Shown here: one piece after another, positions 3,670 through 27,218 of the stretch
Numbering within the stretch: position 1 is the stretch's first letter
Layout of the letters: each line of letters opens with the position of its first letter
NCBI GenBank assembly: GCA_041159245.1
Contig: JBEAZV010000078.1
Location: 15,304-79,303, forward strand
Origin: Pseudomonadota bacterium
GTDB lineage: Bacteria > Pseudomonadota > Gammaproteobacteria > Burkholderiales > Burkholderiaceae_C
Length of the DNA stretch: 64,000 bases
Direction: 5' to 3'
Notes under the pieces: generated by a model
Database searches by the model: none
The model's input: the letters and a program-made list of their open reading frames with translations, nothing else
What the model was told of the DNA's origin: nothing
Made by a program: the position numbers and the translations under genes

Positions 3670-5338
<1,669 letters not shown>

Positions 5339-5465
5339 GGCAGGTCCGGTTGGGGGCCGCGGGCGCGGCGCCAGGAGCTTAAGGGGCGCCGCAGGGTGCA
5401 GCGCCTCGGAAAACCCGACATTTTAGGCGGTGGCGCCAAAGCCCCCGCCAGACCGCCCGGCGCGT

Positions 5466-6182
5466 TCAGCGCCAGTGAAAGTGTGAGTGGGCGCCGAACT
5501 GACCGTGCCCGCGGTGACCCGGGCGCCAGGTCGACCCGTACAGGCCGTAGGTGGCATAGACCTGCACCACCGGGGGCGGGGCGACCACGACCCGATGGAC
5601 CGGCGCAGGCCCGGTGGCATACACCACGGCAGGACCGTAATCGGGCGCCTGCATGATCTGCACGGCGGGCGCGGCGGGTACCGGGGCTGCAGCGGGCATG
5701 GGCGTGACCTGCACGCGCAGCGTCGGGCCCGGGTCTTGCGGCAGCTGTACCTGGTACTGGCGGCCAGCGTACTCGTAGGTCACCTGGTAGCCACTGGTGC
5801 GGTTCTCGTAGAAGGTCTGCGTGGTGCAGACGGTCTGGTCCTGCATGCGGGTGCCGGGCGAGCCTTCGATCTTGTTGCCCAGGATGGCACCGCCCACGAT
5901 GCCGATCACGGTGGCGGCGGCCCGGCCCGAGCCGTCGCCAATCGCGTTGCCGGCGGCACCGCCCGCCACTGCGCCGAGCAGGGCGCCGGCGCCGCTGCGG
6001 GGTTGTTCGACCGCGACCTGCTGGGTGGTGCACACCTGGCGCGGCACCGCGACCTGCTGGATCACGGGAATGCTGGAGACGACGCGGGCGACCTCCTGGC
6101 CGTGGGCGGCGCTGGCGACCAGCCCCATGCCCAGGGGGACGGCAAGGGCCAGGGCGCGAAGGGGGGTGCGAACAACGGTCAT
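5466..6182 (-). CDS. Glycine-zipper 2TM domain exported protein
   Basis: Signal peptide; GALLGAVAGGAAGNAIGDGSGRAAATVIGIVGGAILGN zipper; GYQVTYEYAG; GAGGAGG RBS upstream. Confidence 0.85.
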   Translation of the reverse strand: MTVVRTPLRALALAVPLGMGLVASAAHGQEVARVVSSIPVIQQVAVPRQVCTTQQVAVEQPRSGAGALLGAVAGGAAGNAIGDGSGRAAATVIGIVGGAILGNKIEGSPGTRMQDQTVCTTQTFYENRTSGYQVTYEYAGRQYQVQLPQDPGPTLRVQVTPMPAAAPVPAAPAVQIMQAPDYGPAVVYATGPAPVHRVVVAPPPVVQVYATYGLYGSTWRPGHRGHGQFGAHSHFHWR

Positions 6183-6262
6183 GGGGTGGCCTCCTCACTC
6201 ATCAACGTGCTCACGGTACTGCCCGTTGACGCCGGCCGTCGAGGGCGGTGCGGTCACTGCGG

Positions 6263-6625
6263 TCAAGGGCCACGCCGGGCCAGCAGGGCCTCCCAGGCGG
6301 CCGGCTCGAAGCCCACGGTGGTGATGTCGCCGCCCCAGTCCACCACCGGCCGCTTGATCACGCTGGGCTCGCGACGCATCAGGGCGCCGGCACTGGCCGC
6401 GTCGGTGACGGCGGCCTGGGCGGCGGGATCGAGCTGGCGCCAGGTCGTCCCCTTGCGATTCACAAGCTGGGCCCAGTCCAGGCGCGCCAGCCATAGTCCC
6501 AGGCGGTCGGCGGGTACGCCATCCTTCTTGAAGTCGTGGAAGCGGTAGTCAAGGCCGTGCGCCTGCAGCCAGGTACGGGCCTTTTTCACGGTGTCGCAGT
6601 TGGGGATGCCATGCAGAACGATCAT
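6263..6625 (-). CDS. ArsC/Spx/MgsR family reductase
   Basis: MIVLHGIPNCDTVKKARTWL...FHDFKKDG...LVNRKGTTWRQL...PSVIKRPVV. Start trimmed from the 260-aa ORF to the ATG at 6625. Confidence 0.9.
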   Translation of the reverse strand: MIVLHGIPNCDTVKKARTWLQAHGLDYRFHDFKKDGVPADRLGLWLARLDWAQLVNRKGTTWRQLDPAAQAAVTDAASAGALMRREPSVIKRPVVDWGGDITTVGFEPAAWEALLARRGP

Positions 6626-6658
6626 GTGCGCCATGGTAGTGCGTGACAATCGCGTCCC

Positions 6659-7948
6659 ATGGAGACCCTGCAAGACTGGCTGGCGCACTGCGAGCGCCTG
6701 CATCCCAAGACCATCGAGATGGGCCTGGAGCGCGTGCGCGAGGTGGCGCAGCGCATGGGCCTGCGCTTTGCCTGCCCCGTCATCACCGTCGCGGGCACCA
6801 ACGGCAAGGGATCGACCTGCGCCATGCTGGAGGCCATTGCCCTGGAAGCGGGCTGGCGCACTGGGGTCTACACCTCGCCGCACCTGGTGCATTTTCAGGA
6901 GCGATGCCGGATTCGCGGCGAGTCGGCTGCGCCCGAGGCGCTGGTGCCGCATTTCGCACGGGTCGAGGCGGCGCGCCAGGGCGTGACGCTCACCTACTTC
7001 GAATTCACTACGCTGGCGATCCTGGACCTGATGGCGTCGAGCCACCTGGATGTCGCGATCCTCGAGGTCGGACTGGGAGGACGGCTGGACGCGGTGAACG
7101 TGGTCGACGCCGATTGTTCGGTGATCACCAGCATCGACCTAGACCACATGGAGTTCCTCGGACCGGACCGCGAGTCCATCGGCCGCGAGAAGGCGGGCAT
7201 CCTGCGCGCTGGGCGTCCCGCGGTGGTGAGCGACCCGGTCCCCCCGCAAAGCGTGATCGACCACGCCCAGGCCCTGGGCGCCGATCTGTGGCTGCTGGGG
7301 CGCGATTTCAATTTCTCAGGCGACAAGCAGCAATGGGCCTGGGCGGGGCGCGGGAGGCGTTATGCGGGACTGGCGTATCCGGCGCTGCGCGGGGCCAACC
7401 AGCTGGTGAACGCCTCGGGGGTGCTGGCGGCTTTCACGGCCTTGCGCGAGCGCCTGCCGGTGACGGCGCAGGCTGTGCGCAATGGCCTGGCCCTGGTTGA
7501 ACTGCCCGGGCGCTTTCAGATCGTGCCGGGCGAGCCCGCCCTGGTGCTGGATGTGGCGCACAACCCGCATTCAGTGTCGGCCCTGGTGGCCAACCTCGAT
7601 GCCATGGGCTTTTACCCCGCCACCCACCTGGTGTTTGGGGCCATGGGCGACAAGGACCTGGACACCATGCTGCGGCGCGTGGCGCCCCTGGCCGACCGCT
7701 GGTACTTCTGCGACCTGCCCACGCCTCGGGCCGAAACGGCCGCAGGCCTGCAAGCGCGTTGGGAGGCGCTACAGGCTCGCCCGGGCGTACCGGCCAGCAC
7801 CCATGCCGGCCCCCGAGAAGCCCTGGAAGCGGCGGTCGCCGCAGCGAACCCCACTGATAGAATCGTCGTCTTTGGCTCCTTCTTCACGGTGGGTGGCGTC
7901 CTGGTGGAGGGCACGCCCCGGCTGCAGGCCCGGCACCTGCACTCCTGA
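6659..7948 (+). CDS. folC: Bifunctional folylpolyglutamate synthase/dihydrofolate synthase
   Basis: VAGTNGKGST, YTSPHLVHFQER, EVGLGGRLDAVN, LDVAHNP. Confidence 0.96.
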   Translation: METLQDWLAHCERLHPKTIEMGLERVREVAQRMGLRFACPVITVAGTNGKGSTCAMLEAIALEAGWRTGVYTSPHLVHFQERCRIRGESAAPEALVPHFARVEAARQGVTLTYFEFTTLAILDLMASSHLDVAILEVGLGGRLDAVNVVDADCSVITSIDLDHMEFLGPDRESIGREKAGILRAGRPAVVSDPVPPQSVIDHAQALGADLWLLGRDFNFSGDKQQWAWAGRGRRYAGLAYPALRGANQLVNASGVLAAFTALRERLPVTAQAVRNGLALVELPGRFQIVPGEPALVLDVAHNPHSVSALVANLDAMGFYPATHLVFGAMGDKDLDTMLRRVAPLADRWYFCDLPTPRAETAAGLQARWEALQARPGVPASTHAGPREALEAAVAAANPTDRIVVFGSFFTVGGVLVEGTPRLQARHLHS

Positions 7949-7971
7949 ATACCTGCGGGCACGACGCGTTC

Positions 7972-13452: not shown

Positions 13453-13528
<76 letters not shown>

Positions 13529-13561
13529 AAAAGGCGTCGGGCGGAGTAGTCCAAAGGTTTT

Positions 13562-13637
13562 GACCCTATCGTCTAGAGGCCTAGGACATCACCCTTTCAC
13601 GGTGAGTACCGGGGTTCGAATCCCCGTAGGGTCGCCA
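13562..13637 (+). tRNA. tRNA-Glu(TTC)
   Basis: Acceptor GACCCTA/TAGGGTC; anticodon arm TCACC-CTTTCAC-GGTGA; GGTTCGAATCC T-loop; CCA end. Confidence 0.96.
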
Positions 13638-13707
13638 AATTGTTTTGGCACAAGAAGGTTGCTCTTGGCACGCGGGCTCTGGCCCGCAGCGAAATGCAAC
13701 ACTGCCT

Positions 13708-13784
13708 GGAGCGGTAGTTCAGTTGGTTAGAATACCGGCCTGTCACGCCGGGGGTCGCGGGTTCGAGTCCCGTCCGCTCCGCCA
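13708..13784 (+). tRNA. tRNA-Asp(GTC)
   Basis: Acceptor GGAGCGG/CCGCTCC; anticodon arm CCGGC-CTGTCAC-GCCGG; GGTTCGAGTCC; CCA end. Confidence 0.96.
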
Positions 13785-22121: not shown

Positions 22122-22652
22122 TCAGTGGGTGCGGGCGTTCTGCTCGCGCCCCTCGCGCCGGAACGACCAGGGCGGCACAGGCTGTGCGTCCTGCCATAGC
22201 CCGACGCGTTGCTGCCGCGCCGCGGTCTCAGCCTCGGCGTAGGCCATGCGGTCCTGGGGCGACTGGTCGCGCGCGTACTGCTTGTAGTGCCAGGCCATCC
22301 CGCGCCGGACCTGCTCCAGGTTGATGTCCTGACCATCCAGCACGATCTTGCCCAGCGCGCGGCCATAGCGGTCTTGCTTGCCGCCTTCCACGCTGACTTG
22401 CTTGTCATAGACCAGGTCGCTCAGCGACTGCTTGGCGCGTTCGCCAAAGGGCTGCTTCTTTTCGGGGGAGTCGATGCCGAGCAGGCGGATCTTGTGGGTG
22501 CGCTTGTTGGCGTCCAGCACGGTGACGGTATCGCCATCGGAGACGCCCACGACCCGTCCTGCGAGGGTGTCGGCTGCCGCGCCGGCAATGGCCAGGGCGG
22601 CGAGGGTGACGGCGGCGAGGGTGGAGCGAAGGGTGTGGAGGGTGGGGTGCAC
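22122..22652 (-). CDS. Thermonuclease (SNase-like) family protein with a Sec signal peptide
   Basis: VVGVSDGDT, IRLLGIDSPE, DRYGRALG, GMAWHY, ARQQRVGLW; N-terminal LAAVTLAALAIAGAAA signal. Confidence 0.92.
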   Translation of the reverse strand: MHPTLHTLRSTLAAVTLAALAIAGAAADTLAGRVVGVSDGDTVTVLDANKRTHKIRLLGIDSPEKKQPFGERAKQSLSDLVYDKQVSVEGGKQDRYGRALGKIVLDGQDINLEQVRRGMAWHYKQYARDQSPQDRMAYAEAETAARQQRVGLWQDAQPVPPWSFRREGREQNARTH

Positions 22653-22710: not shown

Positions 22711-25434
22711 TTAGGACCACGCCTGCACCTCGGATGCCAACCAGGACAGGGGCTGGCAGGCCTGAAGGCGCCGCTGCTGGGTTCGTGCTTGCCAGCACAG
22801 GAAGCCGATGCCTGCCCAGTCTGTTTCGGGGGCGTATCGGTTCATGTAGAGCACATCGTAGAGATGGGTGGCGATCGAGGCGGGGTACTTCTGGGAGAGT
22901 TCCAGCAGCCCGGTGTGGCTGTCCTCGCCCTGGAGTTCGCGCATGGCCAGCAGGACGCTGCGGGCGGACACCCGGTTGTGCTCCTCGATCTCGCCAGTGA
23001 CCTCGGCGCCCCGGCCCGACGCGTCGGCGGTTGCGGGGCTGGCGGCGGATGCCAGGAAACAGATCAGGAGCAATTCTTCGTCATCGAGCCGGTTATGCCG
23101 GTTCACGTTCAAAAGGAAGTCCATCGCCACCTGGTGGGCCTGGTCCCACTGGCCGTTTTCAGCCAGCACCGACACCCGCAGCCGATTGGCAAAGACGGTC
23201 TTCCACAGCCCCTTGTCGTCGAAGTCATTCATCATGATCCCGGTCGTCTGCTCGTAGATCTTGATTGAATTGAGAAACTCCTCCCGGAAGGACTTGAGGT
23301 CGCCAGAGGCCTGCAGCGACAGGCTCCACAGCAGGATCGCCACCTCGTCGATGACCTTCCAGTCCTCGATCAGCAGGTCAAGGTCCATCCTCCAGCAGTC
23401 GTCCCAGAGGTCGATAAAGCATCCGCCCAGTGCGCGCCGCAGCCATGACGGCGCAAAGCCATAGGCGCCCACCACCGTGGCATGCAGGGTTTCGAGTTGG
23501 GCCAGATCGCCGAAGGAGTCATACAGCATCATGGCGCCGGGATCTTCCACACAGGCGAAACGCGCTTGCGACAGCTGATCGCCGGTGCGCCGGAAGTGTT
23601 CCCAGTAGGCCCGGGCAATCCCCGGCCTGGACGAGGGAGGACCGGCGATGGCGCCTTCGGGCTCTTCATCGGGTAGCAATTGGAGAAAGCCGTTGCGCGC
23701 CAGCGCATGCTCGAAGCGCCAGTGACCGCCACGTCCCTGCGTGAGGTCGGCACGCAGGAGCATCCGCAGGTTCACGATGTCGACGGCGGAAATACCCTCT
23801 TCGACCTGCTTGCGCACCACCTCCAGGATGTCGCGCTCGGCGACGCCGACATCACTGAGGGCCACACCACCGATCGCGATCCGCACCAGGTCTTCGCCGA
23901 AAAGATCTTGCAGCTTGCGGAACTTGCGTGCGTACAGCGCTTGCACATGGTCGGGTAGCCCCAGCACGGTGTCCCTGAGCATGGCCGAGACCCGGGCTTC
24001 CGGGGACAGATCTGGATAGCGCTGGTCGGTCAGCACGTACTCGCTGGCATCGATGAGGTTCAATTCTTCGGTGGCCAGGGCCAGCCACAAGGGGTTGGAG
24101 GCGCACCGAACGCCGTCGGCCCCCGTGCGGGAGACCAGCAGGTCGACGATGTCCCGGGGCAGCGTCCGGTGGTAGGTCTGGCAGACCTTGTCGATCAGCC
24201 CGTGGGCCTGGTCGACGTCAAGGCGTTCGAGCTCGAGGCACGCCACGTCGAAGCGGCGTTGCAGGCGTTGTGCGCTCAGGCCCGCGGCGTCGTCAAAGAG
24301 CACGATATGCACCCCGGGGATCGGGGCGGGCGGGATCCAGCCCAGATGCTCGCCCAGCGCAGACTCGTGCGAGTGCTCCACGCCGTCAACCAGGATCAGG
24401 ACCGGCCCCTGTGCCGCGCCCTCGCGTAGCAGCTGCCAGAACCGCTCCACCAGGGGCGTCTGGGCAACATCGGCTACCTGCTGCGGCGTGTGACGCAGGT
24501 GGCGTTCCAGCTCCGAGCTCCATCGCGTGAGCATGGCTTCGATGCTGGCGCCCGCCGTGGTCACGCCGAAGGCGTGTGACAGCAGCAGCCGGTCGGTGTA
24601 CTGGGCTGCCTGGCGGTGCGTGAGCGCAAAGACCGTGCTGCGTCCGCTGCCGGAGGGTCCCCGCACCACGCAACACCACTGCGATGTGCCGGCCAGCTGC
24701 TCGCTCAGGGACTCCCCCATGACCGCCCGCCGTGACCGCTGTTCAACAAAGCGCTCGATCTCATGCCGCGCGAGCTGCTCGCGATCGCGGATCTCGTCCT
24801 GACTTTCTTCAGGGAAGGCCTCGGTGAACTCCTTCCTCAGATCCTCCTTGACCAATTCGCCCAGGCCCGCGAGGTTCGAGCGTTTGTAGTAGCGGACCCG
24901 GTCTGGGAACCGCTGCATGATCAAGGCTCGCAGTTGCGCGGTCTTCTCCGCTTGCGCCTGGGCGGCGGCCGCATTGAGGGCGTTGTCCTCCTCGGCTTGC
25001 TCCTGCTCTAGGTAGAAGTAGGGTGTGACCGCCGGGCTGTTGAAGACGCCATGGTCGATCTCGAGATGGGTGACGGACTTGCCCTCGACATCGTGATCGG
25101 GGAGGCCCATTTCGCTGAAGACCCGCTGCGCCAGCGCCGGGGGCGGCACCCAGCCATAGCGCTGGCCCAGGAGCACGATGATGAAGGGCTTGCTGCGGTT
25201 GATCTCACTGAGGCAGACGCGCAGGATGTGCCGCTCCTTGAGCTCGGCATGCTCGAGGCCAGCGCTGTCGACCCCCCAGCGCAGGTCGATCGGCTCGAGG
25301 TGCACACGGCGCTGGGCGAGGAATTCGCCGAGCCAGGGAAAGACGAAGCGCCACAGGTGGTCGCGCTCCAAGTGCATGTCGCGGAAGGTGGAGGAGACGA
25401 ATACCGGTTGGTTGCGCCAGGTCAGTCCTGTCAT
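22711..25434 (-). CDS. DUF4062 + STAND/NACHT-like P-loop ATPase (907 aa)
   Basis: N-terminal VFVSSTFRDMHLER...DLRWGV...CLSEINRSKPFIIVLLGQRYGWVP...SVTHLEI (DUF4062/TEP1-like); Walker A-like GPSGSGRST; Walker B-like LILVDGVE; NPLWL motif; RFEH winged-helix-like motif. Confidence 0.8.
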   Translation of the reverse strand: MTGLTWRNQPVFVSSTFRDMHLERDHLWRFVFPWLGEFLAQRRVHLEPIDLRWGVDSAGLEHAELKERHILRVCLSEINRSKPFIIVLLGQRYGWVPPPALAQRVFSEMGLPDHDVEGKSVTHLEIDHGVFNSPAVTPYFYLEQEQAEEDNALNAAAAQAQAEKTAQLRALIMQRFPDRVRYYKRSNLAGLGELVKEDLRKEFTEAFPEESQDEIRDREQLARHEIERFVEQRSRRAVMGESLSEQLAGTSQWCCVVRGPSGSGRSTVFALTHRQAAQYTDRLLLSHAFGVTTAGASIEAMLTRWSSELERHLRHTPQQVADVAQTPLVERFWQLLREGAAQGPVLILVDGVEHSHESALGEHLGWIPPAPIPGVHIVLFDDAAGLSAQRLQRRFDVACLELERLDVDQAHGLIDKVCQTYHRTLPRDIVDLLVSRTGADGVRCASNPLWLALATEELNLIDASEYVLTDQRYPDLSPEARVSAMLRDTVLGLPDHVQALYARKFRKLQDLFGEDLVRIAIGGVALSDVGVAERDILEVVRKQVEEGISAVDIVNLRMLLRADLTQGRGGHWRFEHALARNGFLQLLPDEEPEGAIAGPPSSRPGIARAYWEHFRRTGDQLSQARFACVEDPGAMMLYDSFGDLAQLETLHATVVGAYGFAPSWLRRALGGCFIDLWDDCWRMDLDLLIEDWKVIDEVAILLWSLSLQASGDLKSFREEFLNSIKIYEQTTGIMMNDFDDKGLWKTVFANRLRVSVLAENGQWDQAHQVAMDFLLNVNRHNRLDDEELLLICFLASAASPATADASGRGAEVTGEIEEHNRVSARSVLLAMRELQGEDSHTGLLELSQKYPASIATHLYDVLYMNRYAPETDWAGIGFLCWQARTQQRRLQACQPLSWLASEVQAWS

Positions 25435-25470
25435 AGCGATTCCCTGCGTGCCCCGGCGTCCCGCCTGTCC

Positions 25471-25950
25471 TCAAATCGGATAGATCAGCGAATTCGGAAT
25501 CATCTCGCTGTCATACACCACCAGCCGGCTCTTGAACCGCAGGCCCTCGGGCGTGGAGACGATGTCATCGAGCGTGCGTCCCACGTTGAACACCGTCGTG
25601 AGCTGCGACAGCTTGGTGCGAAACACCGCGTAGTTCGCCTCGCAGGCGTACGATCCCTCGGCCACCTTGCGGATCAGGGGTGCGCCCACCACATGCCGCT
25701 GGTAGTAGGGGTCATGAAATAGCGTCTCGCTGATGCCATAGGCCCGGTCCTTGAGCATGCCCTTGCTGTCGAACGACAGCGTCGCCAGCGGAAACCCGCG
25801 CTCATGGTTCTCCCGGGGCTGGATGCGATAAATACAGTCGTCCACGAACAGGTCTACCCACCGGTCCCAGTCGGCGCTGTCCACCGCACGGGCATAGTCG
25901 GCATACAGCTGCTGGATCCCCAGGTACTCCTCAAAGCTCAGAGTGCTCAT
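25471..25950 (-). CDS. nagH: Salicylate 5-hydroxylase small subunit
   Basis: YRIQPRENHE, ETLFHDPYYQRH, YAVFRTK, YDSEMIPNSLIYPI; ATGA overlap with nagG. Confidence 0.9.
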   Translation of the reverse strand: MSTLSFEEYLGIQQLYADYARAVDSADWDRWVDLFVDDCIYRIQPRENHERGFPLATLSFDSKGMLKDRAYGISETLFHDPYYQRHVVGAPLIRKVAEGSYACEANYAVFRTKLSQLTTVFNVGRTLDDIVSTPEGLRFKSRLVVYDSEMIPNSLIYPI

Positions 25951-27218
25951 GCTTCCATCACCTCCCGCCAATAGCGGTACATCCCGCGTATCAGCGTCTC
26001 GGTCACCATGTGGTCGGTGTGCGCCTCCGCGGTCCGTCCGCCCAGTTCGGCCAGCGCGCGGTGATCCGGCTTGCTCTCGAAGCCTTCCTGCGAGAACTCG
26101 ATCACCTCGCCATCATCGGCCGACACGAAGCCCGCAGGGCCGAACAAATTGGCCTGGCGCAGGCGCCGATCACGCATCTCGGGGGTGTCGTCCGCAAAGC
26201 CGAAATGCGTCCACACAAAATCAAATGTCCCATGGCCATTGGGCTGGATATGGCGGGTGGACAGGCTATTGACCTGCTGCTGCACGATCACGCTGGGAAA
26301 GATCGTGGTCATGGCCGCCGTCGGGCCGCCCCACCAGGCTTCTGGCGCGATATCGAGGAAACGCGGGTCATGCAGCTGCATGCTTTGCTTGAAGCTCGAG
26401 ACCTGCGTGACCTGCTCGCCGGAGCCCGAGGCGTCGCCGGTGCCGCGGGTGGAGATCATGCTGCCGTGGCGGTGGTGAGCGTCCGTGATCAGCTCTGACT
26501 TGTTGTCTGCGCGCCAGAGTCCGAAGGTGACGAACCAGGTGTGCAGCAGGCCCGGGTGGTAAGGATCTTTGATGTTTTCCTGCATCAGCTTCCAGTTGCC
26601 TGGAATGCGCTGGCGGTTGTAGCCCAGGATCTGCAGCTCGCGGCCGTTGAACACGCGGTCAAAGTGCCCCAGCACGGCGGGACCCAGGTAATCCTCGAAG
26701 GACTCCACCGATTCGTCAAAGGAGGCAAACACCACGCCACCTCGGCGCGCCACTTTCAGTCGGGTGAGGTTGTGGTCCTCGGTCTTGAAATCGGCTGGCA
26801 TGCCGCCGTTGACCTTGCCCTCCTGACGAACGCCGCGGCGAAAGGGGACGCCCTGAAGTTGGCCCTCGAGCGTGTAGCTCCATTGGTGATAGGGACACAC
26901 CAGTTCCTTGCGATTGCCATGGCGCTCGCGGCAAAAACGCATGCCGCGGTGCGCACAGACGTTTTCGATCACGTGGATCGCGTCGGGCGCGCTGCGCACC
27001 ATGATCACCGAGCGCTCGCCGACCACCGTGCGTTTGAAATCGCCGACCTGCGGCACTTCGGCCTCCAGGCCGATGTAGTTCCAATGTCCGCGGTAGAAGA
27101 AGCGCTCGAGCTCCTTGCGATAAAGCGCCTCGTCGGTGTAGGTACGAAACGGAATGCGGCTGATGCCGTCGTTTTCCCAGCGCAGATCGCCGTGCTGGGC
27201 CTGTGCGTCTGTGGTCAT
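25947..27218 (-). CDS. nagG: Salicylate 5-hydroxylase large subunit (Rieske oxygenase alpha)
   Basis: Rieske motif CAH...CPYH, Fe ligands DPYHPGLLH and VSADDGE; closely matches NagG as recalled (ENVCAHRGMRFCRERHGN, QANLFGPAGFVSADDGE, DHMVTETLIRGMY). Confidence 0.92.
   Translation of the reverse strand: MTTDAQAQHGDLRWENDGISRIPFRTYTDEALYRKELERFFYRGHWNYIGLEAEVPQVGDFKRTVVGERSVIMVRSAPDAIHVIENVCAHRGMRFCRERHGNRKELVCPYHQWSYTLEGQLQGVPFRRGVRQEGKVNGGMPADFKTEDHNLTRLKVARRGGVVFASFDESVESFEDYLGPAVLGHFDRVFNGRELQILGYNRQRIPGNWKLMQENIKDPYHPGLLHTWFVTFGLWRADNKSELITDAHHRHGSMISTRGTGDASGSGEQVTQVSSFKQSMQLHDPRFLDIAPEAWWGGPTAAMTTIFPSVIVQQQVNSLSTRHIQPNGHGTFDFVWTHFGFADDTPEMRDRRLRQANLFGPAGFVSADDGEVIEFSQEGFESKPDHRALAELGGRTAEAHTDHMVTETLIRGMYRYWREVMEA

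Follow-up and report, generated by a model that had tools for sequence, protein, structure and literature searches.

A NIR (DUF4062)-STAND NTPase with a fixed Walker A arginine and a novel helical C-terminal domain, a candidate NLR-like antiphage protein of freshwater-type Burkholderiales

We analysed a 64,000-nucleotide window of contig JBEAZV010000078.1 (positions 15,304 to 79,303, forward strand; assembly GCA_041159245.1) from a Pseudomonadota bacterium of the Burkholderiales, and in it the gene P0001, which an initial annotation made from the sequence had singled out as a candidate antiphage protein resembling NLR (nucleotide-binding, leucine-rich repeat) proteins. According to the open reading frame (ORF) list and its translation, P0001 is an ATG-to-stop frame of 907 amino acids on the minus strand (22711..25434, stop codon included; window positions are used throughout), which encodes an N-terminal NIR (DUF4062) domain, a STAND NTPase and a helical, presumed sensor domain. 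The frame and all motifs quoted in the initial annotation, namely SSTFRD, DLRWG, KPFIIVLLGQRYGWVP, SVTHLEI, GPSGSGRST, LILVDGVE and NPLWL, are present in the translation. Start and architecture were matched in five full-length homologs of about 900 amino acids (54-70% identity), the only ones recovered by searches of 5.8 billion clusters, and the proposed order of effector, ATPase and sensor was borne out as NIR, STAND and helical tail.

The NIR domain covers residues ~6-215 (24790..25419, minus strand) and comprises a beta-alpha core and a helical stalk. Pfam family PF13271 (DUF4062) matched residues 11-127 above its cutoff (E = 6e-12, 46 bits versus 24.7 bits), with SSTFRD at residues 14-19, DLRWG at 50-54, KPFIIVLLGQRYGWVP at 82-97 and SVTHLEI at 120-126. 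A resemblance to TEP1/NWD-type proteins had been suspected and was confirmed: the TEP1 crystal chain 11gz_A aligned to residues 6-126 as a single sequence (E = 2e-17), and a family profile of 25 sequences reached E = 3e-49 against the same chain, covering its residues 3-216. In the AlphaFold2 (AF2) model, the region adopts a beta-alpha-beta topology with predicted local distance difference test (pLDDT) scores of 77-93. Across 25 relatives, the motifs SSTF, DLRWG, RYGW, SVT and G-x-x-YG do not vary. The same holds for Glu125 within SVTHLEI (codon 25060..25062, minus strand; 25/25 aligned relatives), the predicted catalytic Glu of the NADase, which aligns with the second Glu of the TEP1 motif 'SVTEMEV', that is E1008 by the construct numbering 895-1113.

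DUF4062 was initially predicted to be TIR-like, and its role as a NADase effector has since been shown in two preprints (10.64898/2026.09.04.749371; 10.64898/2026.05.01.722283), in which it serves Avs2 and further NLR-like antiphage proteins as their TIR-like NADase effector. Le Mouellic et al. (10.64898/2026.09.04.749371) renamed the domain NIR and identified it as the NADase effector of Avs2 from Pseudomonas chlororaphis (PsAvs2), where activity depends on E108, NAD+ is depleted, ADP-ribose rises and the infection pattern is abortive, with the phage terminase as activator. Osinski et al. (10.64898/2026.05.01.722283) crystallised TEP1 895-1113, established TEP1 as a NADase with E1008 as catalytic residue, and reported Swarozyc, for which the phage portal is the activator; a further system, Evangelion, was described by Ibarra-Chavez et al. 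(2026 preprint). The equivalent catalytic Glu is E108 in PsAvs2, E97 in KpSwz and E1008 in hTEP1. Every bacterial NIR protein tested to date acts in phage defence, and NIR genes lie near defence genes in ~20% of cases versus 3.9% expected by chance (2026 NIR preprints).

The nucleotide-binding domain of the STAND NTPase follows at residues ~253-400 (24235..24678, minus strand). Here, the Pfam families proposed initially fared unevenly. PF13271 is above cutoff, but AAA_16, like AAA_22, matched the P-loop only below the Pfam cutoffs, and PF05729 (NACHT) gave no match to P0001 at E <= 1, although many distant relatives do match it. So does P0032, a WD40-type protein that we used as a certified NACHT reference (Pfam NACHT 35 bits versus a 26.7-bit cutoff). 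The full-length AF2 model (pLDDT 74; predicted template modelling score, pTM, 0.73) is confident to about residue 590, with pLDDT values of 80-93 in the STAND region. Foldseek comparison of this model with the PDB placed Avs3 bound to terminase first (8dgc, 2.4e-7), followed by the plant TIR-NLR RPP1, SAMD9, MalT, NLRP3 and NLRP9, and hhalign aligned the profile of P0001 and its five homologs to P0032 over residues 9-458 with 99.2% probability (E = 3e-19). A family-profile search of the PDB for NACHT structures was, in turn, dominated by TPR matches stemming from the tails of the relatives. On the strength of the NLR matches in Foldseek and the hhalign result, the core of P0001 is a STAND NTPase close to the NACHT clade.

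Its Walker B strand, VLILVDGVEH (residues 345-354, with LILVDGVE at 346-353; 24373..24402, minus strand), agrees only in part with the NACHT signature D[GAS]hDE of Koonin and Aravind 2000, as quoted in Kibby et al. (10.1101/2022.07.19.500537): D350 is invariant (25/25) and E353 is invariant among P0001 and its homologs, while the second acidic position of DGVEH is occupied by His, Gln, Lys or Phe across this clade. Helical domain 1 and the winged-helix domain make up residues ~401-590 (23665..24234, minus strand) and contain YHR at 421-423, NPLWL at 447-451 (24082-24096, minus strand) and H575 within WRFEH. YHR, NPLWL and the winged-helix His are common to P0001 and its canonical relatives, and the alignments of distant relatives to P0001 stop at about residue 590.

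Residues ~600-907 form an all-helical C-terminal domain, presumed to be the sensor (22714..23637, minus strand). Modelled on its own by AF2 (pLDDT 74.5, pTM 0.72), it consists of about 15 helices, in line with the helical C-terminus foreseen initially, and no WD40 or TPR family in Pfam matched P0001, again as expected. When residues 585-907 were searched exhaustively with phmmer against 1.84 billion representative proteins, four proteins came back, three of which are clade members or fragments thereof. In the fourth, the metagenomic protein P0031 (359 amino acids), the last 85 residues resemble residues ~667-752 (34% identity, E = 7.5e-7); its N-terminal 260 amino acids are unrelated and unannotated, and it is the sole trace of the C-terminal module beyond the clade. 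Foldseek found nothing at E < 0.001 for this domain in the PDB or in the viral predicted structures of BFVD, and the resemblance to TPR and alpha-SNAP-like folds is weak (TM-score ~0.3). The presumed sensor, called possibly novel in the initial annotation, is novel in sequence and fold, the exhaustive phmmer search, Foldseek and Pfam having given no significant outside match.

Given this architecture, our preferred reading, to which we assign a probability of about 60%, is that P0001 is an abortive-infection protein in one polypeptide, NLR-like and of the NIR (DUF4062)-STAND class, which would act by depleting NAD+. In the resting state, the C-terminal helical domain would keep the STAND module closed. 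A phage-derived trigger, most likely a protein, would bind the C-terminal domain and thereby free the STAND module, which would oligomerise in its nucleotide-bound form. By analogy with PsAvs2, Swarozyc and TEP1, the clustered NIR domains would then hydrolyse NAD+ via Glu125, and the resulting NAD+ depletion would stop the infected cell ahead of completion of the phage cycle. The immune role itself we infer from homology.

The P-loop of the switch is unusual. The Walker A motif GPSGSGRST (residues 259-267; 24634..24660, minus strand) departs from the canonical GxxxxGK[ST] pattern, with Arg265 (24640-24642, CGC) replacing the Lys. All six members of the clade, which we refer to as R-type, read G-x-x-G-x-G-R-S-T with an invariant Arg; the atypical Walker A noticed initially is thus genuine and clade-specific. 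The Arg codons in the three DNAs that were read are CGC, CGA and CGA, and since two base changes separate these CGN codons from a Lys codon, the substitution is old and fixed rather than an error. In contrast, the 19 more distant aligned relatives all carry GK[ST] except P0025 (GAGSS), and both DUF4062-STAND paralogs of this genome keep it as well.

We compared the nucleotide pocket column by column between the six R-type proteins and the 19 canonical relatives. The residue after the P-loop Ser is Thr in the R-type clade versus Ala in the relatives, Walker B reads DGVE versus DALNQFE, and a clade-specific 'VLFD' segment past strand beta-4 (residues 377-381, D381 invariant; 24292..24306, minus strand) stands in the place of IATAxPG or LSTLPG in the relatives. 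The clade keeps the P-loop glycines, Ser266, Asp350, YHR, NPLWL and the winged-helix His, except that the His is Lys in P0005. From this conservation pattern we read the R-type pocket as remodelled yet functional, and the VLFD segment with Asp381 may contact the nucleotide pocket and Arg265. The switch probably binds nucleotide and hydrolyses little or none of it, in which case activation would depend on binding or exchange, with no need for hydrolysis.

The same Arg could instead mark a decaying gene, P0001 being a non-functional relic; a K-to-R exchange inactivates bNACHT01 (10.1101/2022.07.19.500537), and the clade is very small. We regard decay as highly improbable, however. Six lineages at 54-70% identity keep the 907-codon frame open together with invariant catalytic and structural residues, the Arg is fixed on CGN codons two steps from a Lys codon, and other conserved, clade-specific pocket changes accompany it. 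Such a conservation pattern is unlike decay and argues for selection for a modified function. Kibby et al. (10.1101/2022.07.19.500537) also note that inactive STAND domains had been found by Kaur et al., by computation, among predicted conflict systems.

At the level of the clade, the six orthologs are intact and show 71% mean column identity, which indicates purifying selection. Searching with the NTPase region alone (residues 240-600) returned the same five homologs and no R-type module fused to other effectors or sensors, so the clade is closed and its architecture fixed. The next relatives, 28-35% identical over residues 1-590, are 1000-1500 amino acids long and carry TPR arrays. Since the named carriers are metagenome-assembled genomes (MAGs) of Limnohabitans (G041) and Rubrivivax (G042), the clade lives in freshwater-type Burkholderiales. 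The gene is present in one of 25 congeners, and P0001 as a query found it in none of the 24 congeners searched. The DUF4062 domain as such occurs patchily, in 6 of the 81 genomes available for the genus and 23 of the 201 for the family (7-11%), in agreement with published DUF4062/NIR prevalences of 8.7% and 1-15% (2026 NIR preprints). The gene is accessory and not vertically conserved.

Besides P0001, the present genome (G000) contains two further DUF4062-STAND genes, both with GKS P-loops; 75 of 80 congeners are without any DUF4062 gene. The paralog on contig C18 (11779-15630; L045) encodes 1283 amino acids, is an ortholog of the WD40-type P0032 and has a GC content at third codon positions (GC3) of 0.71, below the host norm, while the one on contig C70 (1-3194; L046) is of the TPR type and runs off the contig end. 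Farther afield, scaffold HG326663.1 of Anaerococcus sp. 9403502 (~798-821 kb; L034/L035) holds three co-oriented tandem ORFs of 1292-1350 amino acids, at least two of which are DUF4062-STAND relatives (24-25% identity).

Turning to the surroundings of P0001, the flanking genes are metabolic or otherwise unrelated, as initially stated: thiD, thiO and thiG (thiOSG), LuxC/E, an SNase nuclease, the alpha and beta genes of a Rieske dioxygenase, LuxR and exopolysaccharide (EPS) genes. The two Rieske genes (25471-27218, minus strand) share a 25-bp overlap and stop 36 bp short of the STAND gene, and no terminator intervenes; reading of the sequence in this gap, past the Rieske beta stop codon, revealed a Shine-Dalgarno-like AGGGAA (25440..25445, minus strand) 5 nt before the ATG. 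On the other side, 58 bp downstream of the STAND gene and co-oriented with it, lies an SNase-family nuclease gene (22122-22652, minus strand; PF00565, E = 3e-27) whose product has a hydrophobic, signal-like N-terminus, and which gave a partial match to the PADLOC candidate family 'SNc+LTD' (2.9e-14). The run of alpha, beta, STAND and SNase genes may be one transcription unit. The SNase was considered as an operon partner or effector and rejected, as it is found in no homolog locus and its N-terminus resembles a secretion signal. SNase copies in congeners lie elsewhere, at 35-57% identity only, and some contain in-frame stops.

The local gene order of the window is not ancestral, given that thiG and the Rieske genes are far apart in congeners; Rieske alpha is ~66% identical there, and synteny around P0001 is not conserved. 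Comparison with congeners for an empty site defined no insertion boundaries, the related genomes being too distant. With respect to mobility markers around P0001, no integrase and no promoter or terminator signals were seen, only tRNAs 9 kb away. These form a cluster of tRNA-Ala(GGC), tRNA-Glu(UUC) and tRNA-Asp(GUC) at 13453-13784 (plus strand), just past the glutamyl-tRNA synthetase gene. As to composition, the stretch from 22.5 to 27.5 kb has a GC content of 0.61-0.66, lower than its flanks. The AT-richer segment pointed out initially is real (26/60 GC at 23221-23280), but it is no sign of foreign origin: the total GC of P0001 (0.65) falls below the flanks because of its amino-acid composition (GC at second codon positions, GC2, of 0.42), and its GC3 of 0.83 lies in the host range of 0.80-0.89.

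This setting could also be explained by a non-immune function, in which a STAND-regulated NADase would serve host physiology, such as stress dormancy or regulation of the dioxygenase operon, or conflicts other than with phage. The co-oriented run of Rieske alpha, beta, STAND and SNase genes with gaps of 36 bp and 58 bp and no terminator, the host-like codon usage and the lack of a defence island are all consistent with such a function, and the roles of the eukaryotic NIR-NACHT proteins TEP1, NWD1 and NPHP3 are not clearly immune. However, dioxygenase and SNase neighbours occur at none of the four other loci, so the link lacks conservation; the gene is distributed patchily in a lineage that is very rare, and all bacterial NIR proteins tested act against phage. 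On balance, we consider a non-immune function unlikely.

At the loci of the homologs, neighbours differ. In Limnohabitans (L032 and L004), the R-type gene lies between zinc-homeostasis genes and ApbA/APH/enolase genes. In the Limnohabitans MAG (region L032:598-9115), it stands just past an apparent zinc-starvation cluster with DUF1826, FolE2, ZrgA, a ZIP transporter and two COG0523-like GTPases, and a 0.9-kb AT-rich gap (GC 0.44) separates the two. Besides an insertion sequence fragment and unannotated genes, the Rubrivivax locus (L005, on the same contig as L033) has a TrkA_N-RyR gene at a distance of 7 kb from the P0005 gene. Conflict-type neighbours are present in two loci. At L007, a DUF4062-NACHT-WD40 gene with TEP1 beta-propeller family matches and the canonical P-loop GGGGSGKSA (4195-7965, plus strand) follows the gene of the closest homolog, P0002 (70% identity), in the same orientation and at a distance of 215 bp; its product comprises at least 1257 amino acids before the contig edge and is 68% identical to the C18 paralog of the present genome. 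At L047, a divergent TrkA_N gene lies beside the P0006 gene, and downstream of P0006 a 385-amino-acid protein (5028-6185, plus strand) has no Pfam match and a weak match to a PADLOC 'TIR effector' (E = 2e-6, residues 33-116). No neighbour is conserved across all loci; the functional unit is, therefore, a single gene.

The gene next to P0002 raises the question of a paired system, in which the R-type protein would be a hydrolysis-dead sensor that needs a canonical NIR-NACHT-WD40 helper of the P0032 type, represented here by the C18 paralog. Apart from the co-oriented helper-type gene with its GGGGSGKSA P-loop at L007, helper orthologs exist in the present genome (68% identity) and in the Rubrivivax MAG (59%), the P0001 search came back empty for all 24 congeners, and a K-to-R change abolishes the function of a stand-alone bNACHT (10.1101/2022.07.19.500537). 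Adjacency, however, is restricted to one of five loci, and the two genes reside on different contigs in the present genome. The Limnohabitans MAG, as far as it is assembled, has the R-type gene as its sole DUF4062 gene. Moreover, the R-type protein keeps an intact NADase effector with the catalytic Glu, which would be superfluous for a pure sensor, and co-occurrence may stem from common ancestry or from NLR-like genes accumulating in general, as the present genome has a third, TPR-type paralog. We therefore hold a pairing of this kind to be improbable.

The TrkA_N genes bear on another possibility, namely that the NIR domain makes ADP-ribose, or a compound derived from it, which a transmembrane (TM) TrkA_N-RyR protein would read as the real effector, in a Thoeris-like manner and with no bulk depletion of NAD+. 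TrkA_N(-RyR) genes are found at two of five loci, beside P0006 (L047:1-1560, minus strand) and 7 kb from P0005 (L033:9993-11726, plus strand). The two are homologs (28% identity over 420 amino acids, E = 6e-35), with the L047 gene cut by the contig end where the RyR motif begins, and both RyR-domain genes of the Rubrivivax MAG lie within 5-10 kb of DUF4062 genes. Conversely, the only RyR gene of the present genome (C58:42175-43953) is unlinked to its three DUF4062 genes, with similarity confined to the RyR region, the Limnohabitans MAG has no RyR domain at all, and published NIR systems deplete NAD+ without such a partner (2026 NIR preprints). Signalling through a RyR protein appears more doubtful still.

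Coming back to P0001 as a stand-alone abortive-infection NADase, several observations weigh against it. In the assay of Osinski et al. (10.64898/2026.05.01.722283), no NADase activity was seen for human NWD1, NWD2 and NPHP3 at full length, so that an intact Glu is no proof of such activity. In the bNACHT01 Walker A, K115R abolishes phage defence (Kibby et al., 10.1101/2022.07.19.500537), and the Arg of P0001 could accordingly mean that its NTPase switch is no longer canonical. Known defence genes are absent within ~10 genes on either side of P0001 in the window, and the neighbours at the four other loci are mostly metabolic or unannotated; the gene is accessory, but a defence island is found neither in the window nor consistently at homolog loci. 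P0001 starts 36 bp past the dioxygenase genes without a recognisable promoter of its own, which is unusual for a defence gene; a scan of the gap showed no terminator and no sigma-70 consensus, and co-transcription with the dioxygenase genes is possible. Finally, the host-like codon usage gives no indication of recent transfer.

The library searches add a further negative. PADLOC (2.0.0, 2023), one of the checks suggested initially, matched P0001 to none of its families at E <= 1, and NCBIfam gave no match either; among the neighbours in the window, PADLOC returned only trivial hits, an SNase-domain match and a helix-turn-helix (HTH) match, and at homolog loci nothing except the weak TIR-like neighbour in L047. 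The same library also failed to match the TPR-type and WD40-type paralogs, P0007 and P0021. As it misses these canonical NIR-STAND relatives, this PADLOC version does not cover the NIR-STAND class, and its negative result says little.

Among known systems, P0001 is comparable in architecture to PsAvs2 and other NLR-like NIR proteins (10.64898/2026.09.04.749371), which likewise combine, in one gene, an N-terminal NIR with catalytic Glu, a STAND module and a C-terminal helical sensor; by analogy, NAD+ depletion and abortive infection would be the expected outcome. Unlike PsAvs2, P0001 is unmatched by the PADLOC Avs/AVAST models, carries the Arg Walker A, and has a C-terminal domain with no recognisable TPR array and with homologs only in the six-member clade. 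The closest proteins outside the clade are the C70 paralog and the NPHP3-type DUF4062-NACHT-TPR proteins (P0007-P0025), which have the NIR motifs, YHR, NPLWL and the winged-helix His in common with P0001. NPHP3-type proteins are 1000-1500 amino acids long, with GK[ST] (except P0025), DALNQFE, IATAxPG and long TPR arrays that Pfam recognises, whereas P0001 has 907 amino acids, GRST, DGVE, VLFD and a short helical tail. Human TEP1, and likewise NWD1, NWD2 and NPHP3, carry a homologous NIR directly N-terminal to a STAND/NACHT NTPase, and Glu125 aligns with E1008. In contrast to P0001, which has neither domain and an Arg P-loop, TEP1 contains TROVE and WD40 domains and works in the vault particle.

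With bNACHT01 and other bacterial NACHT proteins (10.1101/2022.07.19.500537), P0001 shares the STAND/NACHT-type core between an N-terminal effector and a presumed C-terminal sensor, as well as the mode, predicted for P0001, of phage defence by a single gene. bNACHT01, however, needs its Walker A Lys, while the P0001 clade has a fixed Arg, DGVEH and no Pfam NACHT match. Swarozyc, Evangelion and Vulcan have the same NADase effector domain and, similarly, a variable sensory region fused to the conserved NIR core. They differ in joining NIR to a non-STAND auxiliary or HEAT domain with no STAND in between, and Swarozyc becomes active by assembling directly with the phage portal. In plants, sensor NLRs whose P-loops are degenerate act together with helper NLRs, as in the RRS1/RPS4 and RGA5/RGA4 pairs. 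Like these sensors, P0001 has a natural non-canonical P-loop in an otherwise intact NLR, and a canonical NLR gene is adjacent in one homolog locus. Unlike the plant pairs, adjacency is limited to one of five loci, and one genome has the R-type only; the likeness would be one of analogy, not homology of pairing.

A broader interpretation is that the R-type proteins constitute a natural, selected NLR-like class whose rebuilt pocket, with the Walker A Arg and the invariant Asp past beta-4, would be locked in a bound state without hydrolysis, and which would act as sensors triggering an NIR-NACHT-WD40 helper or through ADP-ribose signalling to TrkA_N-RyR proteins. One locus has a helper-type gene adjacent to the R-type gene, and in three of four genomes the two co-occur. 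We view this interpretation as improbable; if either version were true, it would provide a bacterial counterpart of the plant sensor-helper NLR pairs.

The NIR NADase-STAND class is already published (2026 preprints), and it is the P-loop Arg and the sensor tail that set this lineage apart. In NLR-type switches, the Walker A Lys counts as indispensable, and a fixed Arg accompanied by pocket changes represents a natural experiment on the P-loop. The presumed C-terminal sensor, in turn, comes from freshwater Burkholderiales, beyond the Enterobacteriaceae-centred sets that have been screened, and the recurring neighbours of the homologs, that is the NIR-NACHT-WD40 and TrkA_N-RyR genes, offer leads to possible multi-component variants.

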